Shown: positions 2,031 to 54,450 of the stretch, in pieces
How the letters are laid out: each line of letters starts with the position of its first letter
How positions within the stretch are numbered: position 1 is the stretch's first letter
Assembly (NCBI RefSeq): GCF_030013595.1
Contig: NZ_CP122768.1
Reading direction: 5' to 3' (one strand)
DNA length: 64,000 bases
Source: Escherichia coli
GTDB taxonomy: Bacteria > Pseudomonadota > Gammaproteobacteria > Enterobacterales > Enterobacteriaceae
Notes under the pieces: model-generated
Seen by the model: the letters and a program-made list of their open reading frames with translations, nothing else
The model's database searches: none
Told to the model about the DNA's origin: nothing
Made by a program: the position numbers and the translations under genes

Positions 2031-3697
2031 TATGCAGTGTGAGTTCTATTCTTCCACCCCAATTTTTCTATTACTGTTCGTAAATCTTCCGGAGGATTTA
2101 ATTTTTCTAACTGTTCTTTATTAATATATTCATATATATTTATTTTCCCATCCCGGAGGATTTTCATCATTCTTGTTCTAATTTTTAATTCATTCCCCAT
2201 CTTTTCTTCAAAAATCTTAACGACATAACCCGGTTGTTTTTTTACAATTTCATTTGTTTTTTCTTCATTACCATAAACATATCCTAACTCATTAAGATAC
2301 AGCTGTTCGCCCTCATACTTCTTAAGTAATTGATAGAAGTACCACTTCGCAAAATCAGGTTGCTTCATGAAAAAACCCTTCAAAAAAATATCATTTACTA
2401 AAATGCTGACAGGCACTTCATTAAATAGCAACTTAACATCATCAAATAACCTTAGTATTAAGCGTGATTTTTCTTGATTGCTTAAGTTAAAATCATTGAC
2501 ATATGCAACCAACTTATCCCAAATCAATTCATGTAATTCACAGCTATTTTTATAGGGTTCTTTATCGAGATTGAAAAATAAGGTCTCAGCTATTTTAATT
2601 TTAGATTGATCGCAGCTAAAATCTTTAGATTGATCGCGGCTAAAATCAATATAATTTATCACAGAGCATGCATGCTTTATCTTTGCTGAATCACCAATAT
2701 ATTGCATGCTTTTATTAAAACACCAATCCAGTATTCTTACATCATTAATATATGGGGATTTTAAAAAAGTCTCCAGAATCGAAACAATGACCGGTGCAAG
2801 GTTAACTTTTGCATCATCTAAGGAATCAATAAGAATATGAGACAGGTTAACTTTGATGTCATTAATTTCATTGTCAGTAGCTTTTTTATTATTAATAAGA
2901 TAATTATTTAATACGTTAAGGTCATCTATTTCTTTCAGTATCCCTTTTTTACCCAGCAAGTATGAAATCGATTCATTACATACATAAGGTATTAATAGCA
3001 GATGTTCTTTCCTTATTGCTAATAATGCATTATTCAATGATTTTTCTAATAAATCCGTAATCGTAGAATCAACTGAACCTTTACAACTCACCTGCGAGTT
3101 ATTTAAGTCATGAGAATTATTTAACTCCTGCGGAATATTTAATAGACGAGCTATTTCCTTGTTAGCTTCGCGTTGGTAACACGCCAGAATCTTGTTAGTA
3201 ATCAGGTGTAATGAACTCTCATCTTTTCTTTCAAAGGACTTCCCTTCATAACGATTAGTCGAACCATCAGATTGTTGAAATATAATAGCCGTATGTCCTT
3301 GACGAGTCCCCATAGTAGTGATAGTGGAAAGTGTAATTTCTATTTCCACCTTAGATAAATCTGCTCGTTCCCCTTCAGGATTATTCATAACAAACTTCAT
3401 TATCTCACTGCCATCATTATTTTTGATATAAGATGAGGACTCAATATGAGCCATCATATTTCTTCCCGCTTCATTGGAGCGTTTGCTAAAATCCACATAA
3501 CCCAGGGTAAATATTTTTACCAAAAACTCCAAAAATGTCTTAGGATCAAGGATATTTCTTGTATTATCCTGCCCCTCGGCATTACGGGCAAAATTATTCA
3601 TTCCAACACGCCAGGTATTTATAACTTCACTTTTTTGTTTAAAATTGTCGGCTGATGTAATGTGTTGAGAAAAATTCCAACCTGATATTTTGCTCAT
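2030..3697 (-). CDS. yjgL: Uncharacterised AT-rich protein (555 aa here), YjgL-like
   Basis: ORF track; very low GC relative to flanks; Asn/Lys/Ile-rich; position between argI and tabA. Confidence 0.75.
   Translation of the reverse strand: MSKISGWNFSQHITSADNFKQKSEVINTWRVGMNNFARNAEGQDNTRNILDPKTFLEFLVKIFTLGYVDFSKRSNEAGRNMMAHIESSSYIKNNDGSEIMKFVMNNPEGERADLSKVEIEITLSTITTMGTRQGHTAIIFQQSDGSTNRYEGKSFERKDESSLHLITNKILACYQREANKEIARLLNIPQELNNSHDLNNSQVSCKGSVDSTITDLLEKSLNNALLAIRKEHLLLIPYVCNESISYLLGKKGILKEIDDLNVLNNYLINNKKATDNEINDIKVNLSHILIDSLDDAKVNLAPVIVSILETFLKSPYINDVRILDWCFNKSMQYIGDSAKIKHACSVINYIDFSRDQSKDFSCDQSKIKIAETLFFNLDKEPYKNSCELHELIWDKLVAYVNDFNLSNQEKSRLILRLFDDVKLLFNEVPVSILVNDIFLKGFFMKQPDFAKWYFYQLLKKYEGEQLYLNELGYVYGNEEKTNEIVKKQPGYVVKIFEEKMGNELKIRTRMMKILRDGKINIYEYINKEQLEKLNPPEDLRTVIEKLGWKNRTHTA
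2601..2648 (-). repeat. In-frame 24-bp tandem direct repeat (2 copies) inside yjgL
   Basis: ttagattgatcgcagctaaaatct / ttagattgatcgcggctaaaatca; encodes DFS(R/C)DQSK twice. Confidence 0.8.
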
Positions 3698-3819
3698 GAC
3701 GAACTCCTTAAGTTAATAAGAACGTCTAAGCATTACAAATTTTACTCACAAAAAAATATCAAAAAACGCTCTTTTCACAAACTCGCCGTAAACCTGGAGT
3801 TATTTACGGCGAAAAGTCA

Positions 3820-4284
<465 letters not shown>

Positions 4285-6320: not shown

Positions 6321-6600
6321 GCAATAGTGTTAGCCGTTCGTTTTCACACTCCGCCCTATAAGTCGGATGAATGGAATAAAATGCATATCTGATTGCGTGA
6401 AAGTGAAAAAGAAAAAAGCAGGAAATGTCTGCAATTATTGATACCGAACGACAGTTCTCCCCCAGAATCACATCAAATAAAAATGCATGTATTTTGACTT
6501 TTAATTCAAATAAACCGTTTGCGCTGACAAAATATTGCATCAAATGCTTGCACCGCTTCTGACGATGAGTATAATGCCGGACAATTTGCCGGGAGGATGT

Positions 6601-19261: not shown

Positions 19262-19552
19262 TCACTCATCCAGCCGTTTAGTCGCGTCTTCATAAACGGC
19301 TGAGTTCTCTCTCTTACCAATAGCTATCACCAACACGAGCAACTCTTTATCGTTAACCTGATAAACCAGGCGATATCCCTGTGTGCGCAGCTTAATTTTG
19401 TAGCAGTCCGGTAAATCCCGCAGTTTAGCCGATGGATTGCGCGGCCTTTTCAGCACATCCTCAAGCTTTTTTTTAAATTGTTCCCGGACTGTCACGCCCA
19501 GTTTTTGCCACTCTTTCAGCGCCCGCGGATCAAACGCCAGCTCATAGTTCAT
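19262..19552 (-). CDS. RelE/ParE-superfamily toxin (96 aa), RelE-like
   Basis: ORF track 19262..19630 trimmed to MNYELAFD start at 19552; strong similarity to E. coli RelE from memory (DCYKIKLR..GYRLVYQV, KRE near C-terminus); stop codon abuts nrdG stop. Confidence 0.8.
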   Translation of the reverse strand: MNYELAFDPRALKEWQKLGVTVREQFKKKLEDVLKRPRNPSAKLRDLPDCYKIKLRTQGYRLVYQVNDKELLVLVIAIGKRENSAVYEDATKRLDE

Positions 19553-19784
19553 CCAGTCGGACCTTAATGGCCTCTTGTGGGTTGGCCAGTCGTTCCCTGA
19601 CAGTGCGTAACAAGGCTTCTTCACTATCACTGACAGTGAGCGTTTTTACCGGCATTCGTCCATTTTCCGCAACGTACTGAAACAGCAGTCGCCCTGCTTC
19701 AGTAGGCGTGATATTTAATTTTTCCAGCACCGCATAAGCCTCATTTTTCAGTTTGTCATCCAGGCGGACGTTAAGTGTGGCCAT
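19542..19784 (-). CDS. RelB/DinJ-family antitoxin (80 aa)
   Basis: ORF track; ribbon-helix-helix N-terminus resembling RelB; 11-nt overlap with toxin start; ggagg RBS. Confidence 0.8.
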   Translation of the reverse strand: MATLNVRLDDKLKNEAYAVLEKLNITPTEAGRLLFQYVAENGRMPVKTLTVSDSEEALLRTVRERLANPQEAIKVRLDEL

Positions 19785-39903: not shown

Positions 39904-39964
39904 CCCCCAGAAACATCAACGGCTCCTGAATCAGGAGCCGTCTTATTACTGCATAGCACTTTGG

Positions 39965-40495: not shown

Positions 40496-40867
40496 ATGAC
40501 CCTACGCAAGATTCTGGCACTCACCTGCCTGCTGTTGCCGATGATGGCTTCCGCACATCAGTTCGAAACCGGTCAGCGAGTGCCGCCGATTGGCATTACC
40601 GATCGGGGCGAGTTGGTGCTTGATAAAGATCAGTTTAGCTACAAAACCTGGAACAGCGCGCAGTTAGTGGGAAAAGTGCGGGTACTGCAACATATTGCTG
40701 GTCGCACCTCTGCAAAAGAGAAAAACGCGACGCTGATTGAAGCGATTAAATCAGCGAAGTTACCGCACGATCGTTACCAGACCACCACCATTGTTAACAC
40801 CGACGACGCGATTCCGGGTTCAGGGATGTTTGTGCGCAGCAGTCTGGAGAGTAATAAAAAGCGGTAA
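40496..40867 (+). pseudogene. ytfJ: ytfJ truncated by IS1 (123 codons remain; stop codon supplied by IS1 terminal repeat)
   Basis: Signal-peptide-bearing N-terminus recognised; ORF terminates at TAA inside the IS1 inverted repeat at 40865-40867. Confidence 0.75.
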
Positions 40868-40877
40868 TGACTCCAAC

Positions 40878-41381
40878 TTACTGATAGTGTTTTATGTTCA
40901 GATAATGCCCGATGACCTTGTCATGCAGCTCCACCGATTTTGAGAACGACAGTGACTTCCGTCCCAGCCTTGCCAGATGTTGTCTCAGATTCAGGTTATG
41001 CCGCTCAATGCGCTGAGTATAACGCTTGCTGATAACGTGCAGCTTTCCCTTCAGGCGTGATTCATACAGCGGCCAGCCATCCGTCATCCATACCACGACC
41101 TCAAAGGCCGACAGCAGGCTCAGAAGACGCTCCAGTGTGGCCAGAGTGCGTTCACCGAAGACGTGCGCCACAACCGTCCTCCGCATCCTGTCATACGCGT
41201 AAAACAGCCAGCGCTGACGTGATTTAGCACCGACGTAGCCCCACTGTTCGTCCATTTCAGCGCAGACAATCACATCACTGCCCGGTTGTATGCGCGAGGT
41301 TACCGACTGCGGCCTGAGTTTTTTAAGTGGCGGAAAATCGTGTTGAGGCCAACGCCAATAATGCGTGCACTGGCGCGACAT
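40878..41381 (-). CDS. insB: IS1 InsB (167 aa; normally expressed as InsAB' fusion by -1 frameshift)
   Basis: ORF track; overlaps insA in the -1 frame. Confidence 0.95.
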
Positions 41382-41575
41382 CCGACGCCATTCATGGCCA
41401 TATCAATGATTTTCTGGTGCGTACCGGGCTGAGAGGCGGCGTAAGTGAACTGTAGTTGCCATGTTTTACGGCAGTGAGAGCAGAGATAGCGCTGATGTCC
41501 GGCGGTGCTTTTGCCGTTACGCACCACCCCGTCAGTAGCTGAACAGGAGGGACAGCTGATAGAAACAGAAGCCAC
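41300..41575 (-). CDS. insA: IS1 InsA (91 aa)
   Basis: ORF track; [23 protein letters not shown]... Zn-finger/HTH protein. Confidence 0.95.
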
Positions 41576-41789
41576 TGGAGCACCTCAAAAACACCATCAT
41601 ACACTAAATCAGTAAGTTGGCAGCATCACCATAGAAGTAAACTATCAAAAAACGCTCATTATTAAAATATAACTTATTAGCAATTGAATTTTTGCACTTT
41701 AAATACAATCTCTTTTTATTTATAACTTTTTAGGTTGGGAGAAATCAGGATGGCAGAATCAGGAAATACACTGTTTCTGCCATCTGAAT

Positions 41790-46208: not shown

Positions 46209-47183
46209 ATGCCAGTAATGATTAGCGGCGTGCTGTACGCCCTGTTAGCAGGGTTGATGTGGGGGCTTATTTTTGTCGGGCCGTTGATCGTGCCGGAATA
46301 CCCGGCGATGTTGCAGTCTATGGGGCGTTATCTGGCGTTAGGGTTAATTGCGCTGCCCATTGCCTGGCTGGGGCGCGTGCGTCTGCGTCAGTTGGCGCGT
46401 CGCGACTGGCTTACCGCCTTGATGCTCACTATGATGGGCAACCTCATTTATTACTTCTGCCTTGCCAGTGCCATTCAACGTACTGGCGCGCCTGTTTCCA
46501 CGATGATTATTGGCACCCTGCCGGTGGTGATTCCCGTTTTTGCCAATCTGCTTTATAGCCAGCGCGACGGCAAACTCGCGTGGGGAAAACTCGCCCCGGC
46601 ACTGATTTGTATTGGCATCGGCCTGGCGAGTGTGAATATTGCTGAGTTAAACCACGGACTCCCCGATTTTGACTGGGCACGTTATACCTCTGGCATCGTG
46701 CTGGCGTTAGTTTCCGTGGTCTGCTGGGCGTGGTATGCCCTGCGCAACGCCCGCTGGCTGCGGGAAAATCCCGACAAACATCCGATGATGTGGGCGACGG
46801 CGCAGGCGCTGGTCACGCTGCCGGTTTCGCTTATCGGCTATCTCGTCGCTTGTTACTGGCTGAATACGCAAACGCCGGACTTCTCCCTACCTTTTGGCCC
46901 CCGTCCGCTTGTATTTGTTAGCCTGATGATTGCGATAGCTGTGCTTTGCTCATGGGTCGGCGCACTTTGCTGGAACGTCGCCAGCCAGCGATTACCAACG
47001 GTGATTCTCGGGCCACTGATTGTCTTCGAAACGCTGGCAGGTTTGCTGTACACCTTTTTGTTACGCCAGCAAATGCCGCCACTAATGACGCTGAGCGGTA
47101 TCGCGCTGTTAGTGGTTGGCGTGGTCATTGCGGTCAGAGCAAAACCGGAAAAACCCTTAATTGAACCTGTCTCTGAAAGTTGA
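46209..47183 (+). CDS. ytfF: EamA/DMT-family inner membrane transporter (about 321-324 aa)
   Basis: ORF track; ten predicted TM helices; exact start among neighbouring Met codons uncertain. Confidence 0.85.
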   Translation: MPVMISGVLYALLAGLMWGLIFVGPLIVPEYPAMLQSMGRYLALGLIALPIAWLGRVRLRQLARRDWLTALMLTMMGNLIYYFCLASAIQRTGAPVSTMIIGTLPVVIPVFANLLYSQRDGKLAWGKLAPALICIGIGLASVNIAELNHGLPDFDWARYTSGIVLALVSVVCWAWYALRNARWLRENPDKHPMMWATAQALVTLPVSLIGYLVACYWLNTQTPDFSLPFGPRPLVFVSLMIAIAVLCSWVGALCWNVASQRLPTVILGPLIVFETLAGLLYTFLLRQQMPPLMTLSGIALLVVGVVIAVRAKPEKPLIEPVSES

Positions 47184-47242
47184 CACGCTGGCAGTGAGTT
47201 AAATAAGCCTCTGCTACGTAAGGGTTATAGCTTTTGCCTTAA

Positions 47243-47264
47243 AGGTGCATTTAAAATGCATCTT
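47243..47264 (+). promoter_or_regulatory. NsrR operator in the ytfE promoter
   Basis: Palindrome ggTGCATTT-a-AAATGCAtc about 30 bp upstream of ytfE. Confidence 0.7.
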
Positions 47265-47290
47265 ATCTTATTAAGAATGAGGTATCAGCT

Positions 47291-47953
47291 ATGGCTTATC
47301 GCGACCAACCTTTAGGTGAACTGGCGCTCTCTATTCCTCGCGCTTCGGCTCTGTTTCGTAAATATGATATGGATTACTGCTGCGGCGGTAAGCAAACGCT
47401 GGCGCGTGCGGCGGCACGTAAAGAACTGGATGTTGAGGTCATTGAAGCTGAGCTGGCAAAGCTTGCTGAACAACCGATTGAGAAAGACTGGCGTAGCGCC
47501 CCGCTGGCAGAAATCATCGACCATATCATCGTGCGCTACCACGATCGTCACCGCGAGCAACTGCCGGAGCTGATCCTGCAAGCGACTAAAGTCGAACGCG
47601 TTCACGCCGACAAACCGAGCGTTCCAAAAGGGCTGACAAAATACCTGACTATGCTGCATGAAGAGCTTTCCAGCCACATGATGAAAGAAGAGCAGATCCT
47701 CTTCCCGATGATCAAACAAGGCATGGGCAGCCAGGCAATGGGGCCAATCAGCGTAATGGAAAGCGAGCACGATGAAGCGGGTGAACTGCTGGAAGTAATC
47801 AAACACACTACCAATAACGTCACACCGCCGCCGGAAGCCTGCACCACCTGGAAAGCGATGTATAACGGCATTAATGAACTGATTGATGACCTGATGGAGC
47901 ACATCAGCCTAGAAAATAATGTGCTGTTCCCGCGCGCACTGGCGGGTGAGTGA
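47291..47953 (+). CDS. ytfE: Iron-sulfur cluster repair di-iron protein RIC (220 aa)
   Basis: ORF track; hemerythrin-like His/Glu motifs. Confidence 0.95.
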
Positions 47954-47960
47954 TCTAAAA

Positions 47961-47985
47961 GCTGGATGGCATTGCGCCATCCAGC
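47961..47985. terminator. Hairpin between convergent ytfE and cycA
   Basis: gctggatggc-attgc-gccatccagc. Confidence 0.5.
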
Positions 47986-47997
47986 ATGATAATGCGG

Positions 47998-49410
47998 TTA
48001 TTTCCGCAGTTCAGCAGCCCGCTTCTTACCAATAAACAACCAGCCCAGCCCCAGAGCGATAAACCACAGCGGGGTAACCAGCAGCGCCTGGCGGGTATCA
48101 TCTTCCAGTGTCAGCAGCACGACCACGAACACAAAGAATGCCATACATACCCAGCACATCAGCTTGCCGAGCGGCATCTTGTAGATTGATTTCTCATGCA
48201 AGTGCGGACGCTGTTTGCGATACACCAGGTACGAGCAAAGGATAATCGTCCAGACGAACATAAACAGAATCGCGGAAACGGTCGTGATCATCGTGAACGC
48301 ACCAATCACGCTGGGATTCACATACAGCATCACCACGCCGCCGAGCAGGCAGATGCAGGAGAAGGTCAGCCCTTTCGCGGGTACGGCGCGCTTAGAGAGT
48401 TTAGCGAACGCTTTCGGTGCCACACCTTCCTGCGCCAGACCAAACAGCATACGACTGGTAGAGAAGACGCCGCTGTTAGCGGAAGAAGCGGCAGAGGTCA
48501 GCACCACAAAGTTAATCACGCTGGCGGCAGCAGGCAGACCCACCAACACGAACAGTTCAACAAACGGGCTTTTCTCCGGGACTACCGAACTCCACGGCGT
48601 CACGGACATAATCACAATCAGCGCGAAGACGTAGAACATAATGATACGGATCGGAATGGAGTTAATCGCGCGCGGCAGTGATTTCTCAGGGTCTTTGGTT
48701 TCCGCAGCTGTTGTACCTACCAGCTCAATCCCTACGAAAGCGAAAACCGCTATCTGGAATCCGGCAAAGAAGCCACTTAAACCTTTCGGGAACCAGCCGC
48801 CATCATTCCACAAATGCGCGAATGACGCTTCCACACCGGTCGGTGACTGAAAGTGCATCGCCACCATGACCAGGCCGACGACAATCAGCGACACAATGGC
48901 GACGATTTTGATCATCGCAAACCAAAACTCCATCTCACCGAACATTTTCACGGTGGCGAGGTTGAGCGTCAGCAGCAGCACTATCACCGCCAGCGAGGCG
49001 ACCCAGTCGGAGAGATCGGGGAACCAGAACTGAGCATAAGCCGTGATCGCCACCACGTCTGCCATACCGGTTACAACCCAGCAGAACCAGTAAGTCCAGC
49101 CAGTGAAATATCCTGCCCACGGCCCGAGTAAATCGGAAGCGAAGTCACTAAAAGATTTGTATTCCAGATTCGAAAGCAGCAATTCCCCCATTGCCCGCAT
49201 CACGAAAAAGAGCATAAAACCAATGATCATATAAACGAAAATGATCGACGGCCCGGCAAGGCTAATCGTTTTGCCGGACCCCATAAACAACCCTGTACCA
49301 ATGGCACCGCCAATGGCAATAAGCTGAATATGTCGGTTTGTGAGATTGCGCCGTAGCGACTGTTCAGCCGGAGCCTGATCATCGGCAACGACTTTTACCT
49401 GATCTACCAT
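47998..49410 (-). CDS. cycA: D-serine/D-alanine/glycine:H+ symporter, APC family (470 aa)
   Basis: ORF track; amino-acid permease signature. Confidence 0.95.
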   Translation of the reverse strand: MVDQVKVVADDQAPAEQSLRRNLTNRHIQLIAIGGAIGTGLFMGSGKTISLAGPSIIFVYMIIGFMLFFVMRAMGELLLSNLEYKSFSDFASDLLGPWAGYFTGWTYWFCWVVTGMADVVAITAYAQFWFPDLSDWVASLAVIVLLLTLNLATVKMFGEMEFWFAMIKIVAIVSLIVVGLVMVAMHFQSPTGVEASFAHLWNDGGWFPKGLSGFFAGFQIAVFAFVGIELVGTTAAETKDPEKSLPRAINSIPIRIIMFYVFALIVIMSVTPWSSVVPEKSPFVELFVLVGLPAAASVINFVVLTSAASSANSGVFSTSRMLFGLAQEGVAPKAFAKLSKRAVPAKGLTFSCICLLGGVVMLYVNPSVIGAFTMITTVSAILFMFVWTIILCSYLVYRKQRPHLHEKSIYKMPLGKLMCWVCMAFFVFVVVLLTLEDDTRQALLVTPLWFIALGLGWLFIGKKRAAELRK

Positions 49411-50556: not shown

Positions 50557-51195
50557 ATGCCCGGGCGCTTTGAACTAAAACCAACCCTGGAGAAAGTCTG
50601 GCACGCGCCGGACAATTTTCGCTTCATGGACCCGCTGCCGCCGATGCATCGTCGGGGGATCATTATTGCCGCCATTGTATTGGTAGTCGGATTTCTGCTT
50701 CCATCTGATGATACGCCCAACGCGCCGGTGGTGACGCGTGAAGCGCAGTTAGATATTCAGTCGCAATCACAACCACCGACAGAAGAACAGCTGCGGGCGC
50801 AATTAGTCACGCCACAAAATGATCCTGATCAGGTGGCTCCGGTCGCTCCAGAACCAATACAGGAAGGCCAGCCAGAAGAGCAGCCGCAACCCCCCCAAAC
50901 GCAACCATTCCAGCCAGATAGCGGAATTGATAATCAATGGCGCTCTTACCGTGTCGAACCCGGTAAAACGATGGCACAGCTGTTCCGCGACCACGGGCTG
51001 CCCGCTACCGATGTCTATGCAATGGCGCAGGTAGAAGGCGCGGGTAAGCCGCTGAGTAATTTGCAAAACGGGCAGATGGTGAAAATCCGCCAGAACGCCA
51101 GCGGCGTGGTGACGGGCTTAACCATTGATACGGGGAATAATCAACAGGTCCTGTTTACCCGCCAGCCGGATGGCAGTTTTATTCGTGCGCGGTAG
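50557..51195 (+). CDS. ytfB: OapA/LysM-domain cell-division-associated protein (212 aa)
   Basis: ORF track 50521..51195 trimmed to MPGRFELKP; Pro/Gln-rich linker. Confidence 0.85.
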
Positions 51196-51295
51196 ATGAA
51201 GGGTCAACCAGAAGCCAGCTAAGGAGCGTCTCTTTGATGACCTTACGTCTGGCTTCCAGTGCCTGGGGGGAAACCATACTGATGTGTTGACATCC

Positions 51296-51317
51296 TCCAC
51301 GCCCTGAAGGACGTGGA
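51296..51317. repeat. Subterminal hairpin of the IS element (tnpB-distal end; shared core GCCCTGAAGGACG)
   Basis: tccac-gccctgaagga-cgtgga; 13-nt core identical to the hairpin at 52998-53017. Confidence 0.6.
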
Positions 51318-51329
51318 TCCCTGCTACGT

Positions 51330-52538
51330 TCAGGCTGTCGCCTGAATCATTTCGGTGGGTTCCTGCTTCAACGAGCGGCCTGACTGCACCATCTCTCCAC
51401 AGGCAAGAACGGCGTGCCCCGCCGCTAAAATGTTACGAGCGCCATTTACATCGGCGTTCGCTGTATATCCACATACCTGGCATCTGAATTTAATTTGTGA
51501 CAGGCGATTTTCTTTCGCTGTATGACCACAGCACGCGCAACGCTGGCTTGTGTACGCTGGCGGAACAGCAAGCACCTGACCGCCACGCCAGAGCTGCTTG
51601 TACTCAAGCTGGCGGCGCATTTCATACCAGCCCTGATCCAGTATCGAACGGTTTAAACCTGATTTTGCCCGGACATTGCGCCGCGGCTGGCTGACCGTAC
51701 CCGCTGCTGACTTTGACATGTTGCTGACCTTCAAATCCTCAATGACTATCATTGCGTGGTTTTTGCTGACGGTCGTTGTGACTTTGTGAAGGTAGTCCCT
51801 GCGGATATTTGCGATACGGGAATGCAGTCGCTGTATTTTGCGTTTCTGCTTCTGCCAGTTATTGCTGAATTTGACCTTGCGGCTTAACTGTCGCTGAAGT
51901 CTCGCCAGCTTCTTCTGTTTTTTCTGAAAACTGTTTACAGGCTCAAAGACTGTGCCATCTGACAGCGTGGCGAGTTTAACCACGCCAGCATCCAGCCCGA
52001 CCATTGATGCTGAAGGATGAACCGGAGTTGATACTTCACTTTCTGTCTGAATACTGATGTACCACTTACCGCAGGACTGGCTGACCGTGACATTTTTCAC
52101 AACACCCGTGACCTGACGGCTATTCCGGTAGCGCATCCAGCCCAGTTTCGGCAGAAAAATACGGCTGTTTTCCTGATAGAGCTTAACGCCCTACGGGTAG
52201 CGGAATGCATCATTCTGTCCCCGCTTTTTGAATCGGGGAAAAGCAGCCCGCTTCTGGAAGAAGTTTTTGTAAGCCCGCTCAAGGTCTTTCAGTGACTGTT
52301 GCAATGGCTGTGACGGGGCATCTTTAAGCCATTGCGTTTCAGTGGCATTTTTCCACTCAACCAGCCAGGAAGCCATTTTCCCGTAAGGGATGTATTTATT
52401 ACCGGCCTCATGATTCTCATTCTGAAGCGCCAGAGCACGATTGAAAACGAAACGACATGCGCCTGCGAAGCGCCTCATTTCACGCTCCTGTTGACCACCG
52501 GGTCTTAACTGGAATTTAAATGCCTGTCGTCGTTTCAC
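51330..52538 (-). pseudogene. tnpB: IS605-family TnpB (RuvC-like RNA-guided nuclease family), interrupted by one in-frame TAG
   Basis: ORFs 52191..52538 and 51330..52136 share one frame; my hand translation across the gap gives ...DAFRYP-stop-GVKLYQENSRIFLPKLGWMRYR...; C-terminal Zn ribbon CACCGH...CQVCG; RuvC-like D/E/D residues. Confidence 0.8.
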
Positions 52539-52608
52539 AGGTCAAATGATACTTTGGTCTGTGAAAAAAGAAACCTATATCCGGCGTGGAAGGTATTGTG
52601 TTTTCCTG

Positions 52609-53020
52609 ATGCATGTTCACCTGGTCTTTGTCCCAAATACCGACGCCAGATTTTTGACCATGACGCGACAGAAAAACTACGCACTTACTTTTCAAATGTA
52701 TGTGCTGATTTTGAAGCTGAACTGGTTGAAATGGATGGCGAACCAGATCACGTCCATTTGTTAATTAAATATCCTCCCAAACTGGCGATATCCAGTCTGG
52801 TAAACAGCCTCAAAGGCGTATCGGGTAGGTTACTGCGACGAGATCGACCAGATATTGCAGTCAGGTATTACTACAAAGGCGTTTTGTGGAGTCCTGGCTA
52901 TTTTGCCAGTAGCTGTGGAGGTGCGCCAATATCCGCCATCCGTCAATCCATTGAACAACAGCAAACACCTGGTCAGGTGGAAAACCGCGCCGTATATCCC
53001 CGCCCTGAAGGACGGGGTTT
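52609..53020 (+). pseudogene. tnpA: IS200-type Y1 (HuH) transposase TnpA, -1 frameshifted near N-terminus
   Basis: MHVHLVFVP in one frame, then KYRRQIF...DHVHLLI... (HuH motif) in another; switch within gtcccaaatac homopolymer context; no in-frame stop until 53159, so C-terminus undefined. Confidence 0.7.
52998..53017. repeat. Subterminal hairpin of the IS element (tnpA-distal end)
   Basis: cccc-gccctgaagga-cgggg; same loop and core as 51296-51317. Confidence 0.6.
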
Positions 53021-53033
53021 TACGGCACACCGG

Positions 53034-53357
53034 ATAAACCAGGCCAAGCGTATGCTGGTTGATCAAATAATATCCCCCAAGCGCAGCAATATTAATATAC
53101 ACCTGCAATGGGTCGATATCTGGCTTAAAAATATTGTGTTTCTTCCCTTCATCCAATAAGGATTCCATTAACTGCAAGTGCGCATGATTAATTTCTAAGA
53201 GACGCTGTGATTTTACATAATGCACACCTTTACTTTGGTTTTCACTATGCACAATTTTTAAAAACCAAGGATTAGCAATATAATATATCCTAGGTAAAAT
53301 CGATGATTTTTTCAATGGCTTTTTGTGGCTGGTTAACCTGCTGATTAACAAACGCAC
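53034..53357 (-). pseudogene. ytfA: Truncated ORF, N-terminal about 108 codons, ytfA-like; C-terminus replaced by IS sequence
   Basis: 175-codon ORF 52830..53357 whose last third is antisense to tnpA; identity with K-12 ytfA is from positional memory only. Confidence 0.45.
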
Positions 53358-54420: not shown

Positions 54421-54450
54421 AAAACGCCGACCAGTGGTCGGCGTTTTTAC
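54421..54450. terminator. Bidirectional terminator between yjfZ and rplI
   Basis: aaa-acgccgacc-agt-ggtcggcgt-ttttt. Confidence 0.65.

Follow-up and report, generated by a model that had tools for sequence, protein, structure and literature searches.

The inverted repeat ahead of ytfE in an Escherichia coli chromosome is very probably the NsrR operator of this gene, in a minor natural allele

The palindrome at 47242-47264 of the window, by which we mean the whole 64,000-nt stretch of DNA that was analysed, is with a probability of about 95% the operator by which NsrR shuts off ytfE. The element is already known; it is the textbook NsrR operator of ytfE, so that the reading is correct but ordinary, and since the sole new detail is a minor natural allele its interest is low. 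It serves as a positive control, in that a reader without tools recognised a real operator. The ytfE site has been confirmed by ChIP-chip and ChIP-seq. Bodenmiller and Spiro (2006) are said to be credited with the ytfE site as a functional one and reportedly described the repeat as overlapping the -10 element of the ytfE, hmp, and ygbA promoters, and the ytfE operator was reportedly also studied by Partridge (2009) and, by ChIP-seq, by Mehta (2015). A comparative-genomic study had predicted the site in 2005 (Rodionov et al., PMC1274295, Table S2 and Fig. S2), and it cites a personal communication according to which the repeat takes part in the repression of ytfE by NsrR. In CFT073 the ytfE site, AAGATGCATTTAAAATGCATCTT, ranks first among the 11-1-11 NsrR sites with an ln P of -25.13, an NsrR ChIP-seq peak lies 50 bp upstream of the ytfE start codon, and ytfE is induced 69.6-fold by nitrate (PMC5320621). 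The ytfE mRNA was up 544-fold in an nsrR mutant of Salmonella (PMC2884951) and PytfE serves as an NsrR-dependent NO reporter in EHEC (PMC7336997). The palindrome of the window is the positional orthologue of the CFT073 ytfE site, collinear with K-12, 14EC020, UTI89, and O157 and with one or two differences inside the site; locus, 23-bp frame, distance to the ATG, and flanks are those of the ytfE NsrR operator of K-12 and CFT073 and it is thus the same element. This orthology to a site with a ChIP-seq peak, together with the matrix score given below, supports the NsrR-type assignment that had been made from the letters of the DNA.

The site and its neighbours are as follows.

46218-47183, plus strand: ytfF (DMT transporter), the co-directional upstream neighbour.
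47242-47264, no strand assigned: very probable NsrR operator, 11-1-11 inverted repeat AAGGTGCATTT-A-AAATGCATCTT, from the repeat finder, the matrix, and CFT073 orthology.
47246-47260, no strand assigned: perfect 7-1-7 core TGCATTT-A-AAATGCA, read directly from the sequence.
47279-47282, plus strand: Shine-Dalgarno sequence GAGG of ytfE, nearly invariant in the cross-species alignment.
47291-47953, plus strand: ytfE (RIC/DnrN di-iron protein), the regulated gene, from annotation and NCBIfam NF008221.

The repeat finder gave two arms of 11 nt each, 47242-47252 and 47254-47264, separated by a 1-nt spacer and 91% complementary (10 of 11 pairs). The sequence-only reading had described a near-perfect 11-1-11 repeat with the core TGCATTT-a-AAATGCA, which is borne out, and had placed it at 47243-47264, of which the end is right and the true start, 47242, is one base earlier. 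The palindrome lies inside the 107-nt spacer between the co-directional ytfF and ytfE, 58 nt past the stop of ytfF (47183) and 26 nt ahead of the ATG of ytfE (47291), and the local sequence reads ...GCCTTA AAGGTGCATTT A AAATGCATCTT ATCTTATTAAGAATGAGGTATCAGCT ATG. The window comes from the E. coli chromosome: a segment of 801 bases around the palindrome has matches in 5416 of 5426 complete E. coli genomes, mostly at 95-99% identity, and in the pig-gut strain HCP5S3_I2 at 100%. The gene order in the annotation of the matching genome is cpdB, ytfH, qorB, ytfF, ytfE, cycA on the opposite strand, and fklB, and the protein encoded downstream of the palindrome matches the YtfE equivalog model NF008221 of NCBIfam with 417 bits against a cut-off of 254. 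From the annotated order and this match the downstream gene is ytfE, as the sequence-only reading had assumed. A tblastn search found no match to nsrR within the 64-kb window, and in the nearest genome, NZ_CM149870.1, the annotation has nsrR (WP_001177639.1) at a distance of 27 kb from the site.

The NsrR weight matrix was built, in palindromised form, from 25 of the CFT073 11-1-11 sites (Table 4 of PMC5320621), ytfE and one duplicate being omitted. Against this matrix the palindrome scores 30.1 bits out of a maximum of 31.4, a score from which the omission of ytfE removes the circularity only in part, because the matrix with which the published CFT073 sites had been chosen came from ChIP peaks, that of ytfE among them. 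The score exceeds those of all 25 training sites, the best of which reaches 26.5 bits in-sample, and the exact probability of 30.1 bits is 1.4e-12 per position, which corresponds to 9e-8 expected occurrences per 64 kb. The next-best position in the window scores 17.0 bits. A poor matrix score, named beforehand as what would speak against an NsrR site, is clearly not what the scan gave, as is seen from these three values. When the NsrR consensus AAGATGCATTTNAAATGCATCTT was searched with at most 3 mismatches there was 1 match in the window compared to 0.00 expected from 100 dinucleotide shuffles.

Two weaker matrix hits elsewhere in the window were considered as NsrR sites and rejected. The one at 912-934 (ATCATCCATATAAATTGAATTTT, 17.0 bits; about 0.05 chance matches per window) has no NO-related neighbour and lies 34 nt upstream of an ornithine carbamoyltransferase gene, annotated argF, beside rraB; it looks like an ARG-box (ArgR operator) region. 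The other, at 6480-6502 in the pyrLBI leader region (14.4 bits; about 0.25 chance matches per window), likewise has no NO-related neighbour.

The site is found at the same place in other species. In the cross-species alignment it is kept across genera while its flanks diverge. When the pattern AAGNTGYATTTNAAATRCANCTT was scanned in one genome per species (298 Gb) it occurred in at least 120 stretches of species genomes, where about 1-10 would be expected by chance as estimated from base composition. Among the matches listed, 25 of 122 sites are followed at a short distance by a gene for a YtfE homologue, and the gap from site to ytfE start is exactly 26 nt in 19 of these 25 and 24-27 nt in 24 of them, the ytfE orthologues with a site at that spacing reaching down to 75% protein identity. 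These sites were chosen by pattern and the frequency of site loss is not readable from the set; the alignment in Fig. S2 of Rodionov et al., which shows the site in all six enterobacteria, covers this gap for six species because it is based on orthology and not on a pattern (PMC1274295). A set of 128 ORFs flanking the remaining, non-ytfE sites was scanned against Pfam and the counts pooled. Among the matches listed they gave Globin 43 times, in 32 cases together with FAD_binding_6, the reductase domain typical of flavohaemoglobin, and further Rrf2 (nsrR-like) 23 times, Bac_globin (truncated globin) 16 times, alternative oxidase (AOX) 13 times, TehB 7 times, and Hcp and NorB once each. This set agrees with the published NsrR regulon, autoregulated nsrR-hmp pairs included (PMC1274295).

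The exact E. coli-type 23-mer also recurs in Legionella (L017, L039, L047-L049, L075, L077, L099-L100, L106-L108, and other loci), Acinetobacter, and some Bacillaceae, often several times per genome, which suggests that regulons of the NsrR type sharing an identical operator sequence extend far beyond the Enterobacteriaceae. At four ytfE loci of Citrobacter and Kluyvera (L011, L046, L051, and L053) there are CRP-like palindromes, TGTGA-N6-TCACA, about 40-60 nt upstream of the ytfE operator, and three of these loci (L011, L046, and L051) have about 1.9 kb of extra DNA between ytfF and ytfE; such CRP-like palindromes upstream of ytfE are absent from E. coli.

Within E. coli the spacer is nearly invariant when aligned with eight other strains; it varies at a few bases immediately ahead of the palindrome and at two positions of the palindrome itself, one of which distinguishes the window.

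47245, plus strand: polymorphic base, position 4 of the left half-site, G here and A in the K-12 and CFT073 alleles (alignment).

This is the one base by which the left arm of the window, AAGGTGCATTT, differs from that of the CFT073 operator, AAGATGCATTT, which makes a perfect palindrome in CFT073-type strains, 14EC020 for example. The K-12 allele is AAGATGCATTT...AAATACATCTT, with an A at position 18 that is also found in O157 and UTI89, and the mirror image of the change in the window, a C20 type with CACCTT in the right arm, is present in one strain. Allele counts were obtained with 34-nt queries that seed only on the exact allele in the 5426 complete E. coli genomes. The G4 allele of the window was found in 74 of them (1.4%), the perfect palindrome in 889-960, and the K-12 type in 3523-4193, and at least 5227 of the 5426 genomes have one of these three near-identical alleles. 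The matrix scores are 30.1 bits for the window allele, 31.3 for the perfect palindrome of CFT073, and 30.6 for K-12, so that the G at 47245 lowers the score by 1.2 bits. The left arm of the window moreover has the same sequence as the left half-site listed for ygbA (table in PMC5320621), and the symmetric form AAGGTG...CACCTT is found in one Enterobacteriaceae metagenome-assembled genome. The small score cost, the identity to the ygbA half-site, and the existence of the symmetric form show that position 4 is tolerated and weakly informative. Going by its matrix score the G4 allele should bind NsrR almost as well as the common alleles, and most likely it is neutral or nearly so. That the G4 base would lower the affinity for NsrR and derepress ytfE at lower NO, or that the transcribed palindrome would weakly terminate or block transcription and so shield ytfE from ytfF read-through, is a speculation to which we give little credence. 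The allele series (perfect, K-12, G4, and C20) could help to tune NO biosensors based on PytfE and could probe how much half-site asymmetry NsrR tolerates.

How the operator would act depends on the promoter, for which two further elements are proposed.

47212-47227, no strand assigned: candidate NarL/NarP-like 7-2-7 box TGCTACG-TA-AGGGTTA, from 10/14 matches and conserved spacing.
47252-47257, plus strand: putative -10 hexamer TAAAAT at the operator centre, from its sequence and its invariance across species.

A strict consensus scan found no sigma-70 promoter in 47100-47400, and text searches of the literature found no statement of the ytfE transcription start or -10 element. TAAAAT is a 5/6 match to TATAAT, and as the -10 element it would put +1 near 47264-47265, and the leader would then be 26 nt long. 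The hexamer at 47264-47269, another possible -10, reads TATCTT here and TATATT in most other genera, and with this choice the operator would still cover the spacer and the -35 region. It is plausible, as the sequence-only reading had supposed, that the operator lies over the likely ytfE promoter. No part of the spacer varies more than the presumed -35 stretch (about 47229-47238), whether E. coli strains or different genera are compared. The 7-2-7 box agrees with the NarL/NarP consensus TACYYMT-NN-AKRRGTA at 10-12 of 14 positions, the E. coli box being a weak one with 10/14, and its centre is 31.5-33.5 bp from that of the palindrome in 20 of 21 Enterobacteriaceae species; taking 47264 as +1 would centre the box at about -44.5 and make the operator run from about -22 to +1. 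Candidate NarP sites were also marked in dnrN upstream regions in the legend of Fig. S2 of Rodionov et al. 2005 (PMC1274295).

It has been shown that [4Fe-4S]-NsrR is a dimeric repressor of the Rrf2 family and that NO degrades or nitrosylates its cluster and thereby abolishes repression (PMC9052748). By orthology, a holo-NsrR dimer would sit on the 23-bp site with one winged-helix domain on each 11-bp half-site, and nitrosylation of the cluster by NO would release NsrR and strongly derepress ytfE. Repression would probably be by promoter occlusion, the operator lying over the core promoter and RNA polymerase being kept out: bound NsrR would exclude the polymerase because the operator would overlap the promoter under either choice of the -10 and the ATG is only 26 nt downstream. 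The NarL/NarP-like box about 33 bp upstream may give nitrate- or nitrite-dependent activation that replaces a -35 element.

An RNA-level role of the palindrome has to be weighed against, or beside, that of an operator. It could end the transcripts of ytfF as an intrinsic terminator or attenuator hairpin, and a lenient terminator scan does flag it, with a 10-pair stem, a 3-nt loop, and the tail ATCTTATTAA; the hairpin folds at -10.1 kcal/mol (z = -3.3), it is located shortly past the ytfF stop, and the scan shows no other terminator-like site in the spacer. The stem, however, contains just 3 G-C pairs and the U-tract is interrupted, no RNA family was matched when 47000-47500 was searched against Rfam, and the K-12 Term-seq tables, which represent few growth conditions and may be incomplete, list no 3' end between ytfF and ytfE. 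In several genera about 1.9 kb separate ytfF from ytfE, and at one locus no ytfF match was found, and in these cases the palindrome is still 24-27 nt from the ytfE ATG; thus it travels with ytfE and not with the 3' end of ytfF. Many taxa also have the same 23-mer ahead of hmp, nsrR, and other genes. The palindrome makes an unconvincing ytfF terminator, and we consider this explanation unlikely, though the hairpin may have a minor side role.

It could also be argued that the site belongs to another regulator, such as IscR or another Rrf2 protein, FNR, or NarL/NarP, and that its resemblance to NsrR sites is coincidental, since Rrf2 proteins bind palindromes of similar length and a NarL/NarP-like box sits in the same promoter. 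That box, however, stands apart from the palindrome, 33 bp upstream, and the palindrome itself, compared by eye and not with a matrix, is unlike the FNR consensus (TTGAT-N4-ATCAA) and the NarL heptamer; its score falls no more than 1.3 bits short of the NsrR matrix maximum and NsrR gave a ChIP-seq peak at the orthologous CFT073 site, which makes another regulator very improbable. Still harder to hold is the view that this is a chance A+T-rich palindrome without function. Intergenic DNA is A+T-rich, and generic 11-1-11 repeats with at least 10 pairs occur 4 times in the window compared to 0.7 expected, but a matrix-score P of about 1e-12, the failure of the shuffles to give any match, the presence of one of three near-identical alleles in nearly every complete E. 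coli genome, and the conservation of the site amid diverging flanks leave this view with a negligible probability. Matrix score, conservation, and the published NsrR ChIP data thus effectively exclude both chance and another regulator, and an NsrR operator is the reading that we retain. The other three generic repeats are G+C-rich, one inside ulaE and two between convergent genes. The latter two, perfect palindromes at 39919-39941 (paeA/ytfK) and 54423-54445 (yjfZ/rplI), resemble terminator hairpins and probably act as intrinsic terminators in both directions.

Compared with other NsrR operators of E. coli, the ytfE site shares the 11-1-11 architecture and the half-site consensus with those of ygbA, hmp, and hcp, which are less symmetric and score 20-27 bits as against 30.1. 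The hmp and hcp genes have additional regulators (PMC5320621, PMC1274295). In the crystal structure of [4Fe-4S]-NsrR of Streptomyces coelicolor on the 23-bp hmpA1 operator the protein is likewise a dimeric Rrf2 repressor on a pseudo-palindrome, with binding controlled by the cluster, but the recognition sequence, AACACGAATATCATCTACCAATT, is a different one (PMC9338935). The structural analogy is only a general one because ScNsrR does not bind E. coli-type sites (PMC9338935). The proposed layout of the ytfE promoter, with a candidate 7-2-7 box about 33 bp upstream of the operator and no recognisable -35 element, resembles that of promoters with a NarL/NarP site near -44, such as yeaR-yoaG, ogt, and napF. 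Unlike in that set, the ytfE box is a weak match and control by NarL/NarP is putative. One member of the set, yeaR, is listed as NsrR-regulated (PMC5320621).

Several features of the window away from the site were also seen. An IS1 element of 768 bp (40863-41630), with the InsA and InsB ORFs on the minus strand, cuts ytfJ to 123 aa and stands in place of 1240 nt of the otherwise nearly identical NZ_CM149870.1, the missing part being the 3' end of ytfJ and a frameshifted hypothetical gene beside cysQ. According to the annotation of the nearest genome, IS200/IS605 remnants at 51179-53328, an insQ/tnpB pseudogene with an internal stop and a frameshifted tnpA, interrupt a TetR/AcrR-family gene between ytfB and yjfZ, and a toxin-antitoxin pair of the RelE/RelB(DinJ) type lies at about 19262-19784 between nrdG and cybC. 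At that position K-12 presumably has no such pair. Finally, the convergent stop codons of ytfE and cycA (47953-47998) are only 44 nt apart, and in the K-12 Term-seq tables a plus-strand 3' end at 4431615 is annotated as antisense to ytfE, which would fit cycA transcripts that terminate within the 3' region of ytfE.
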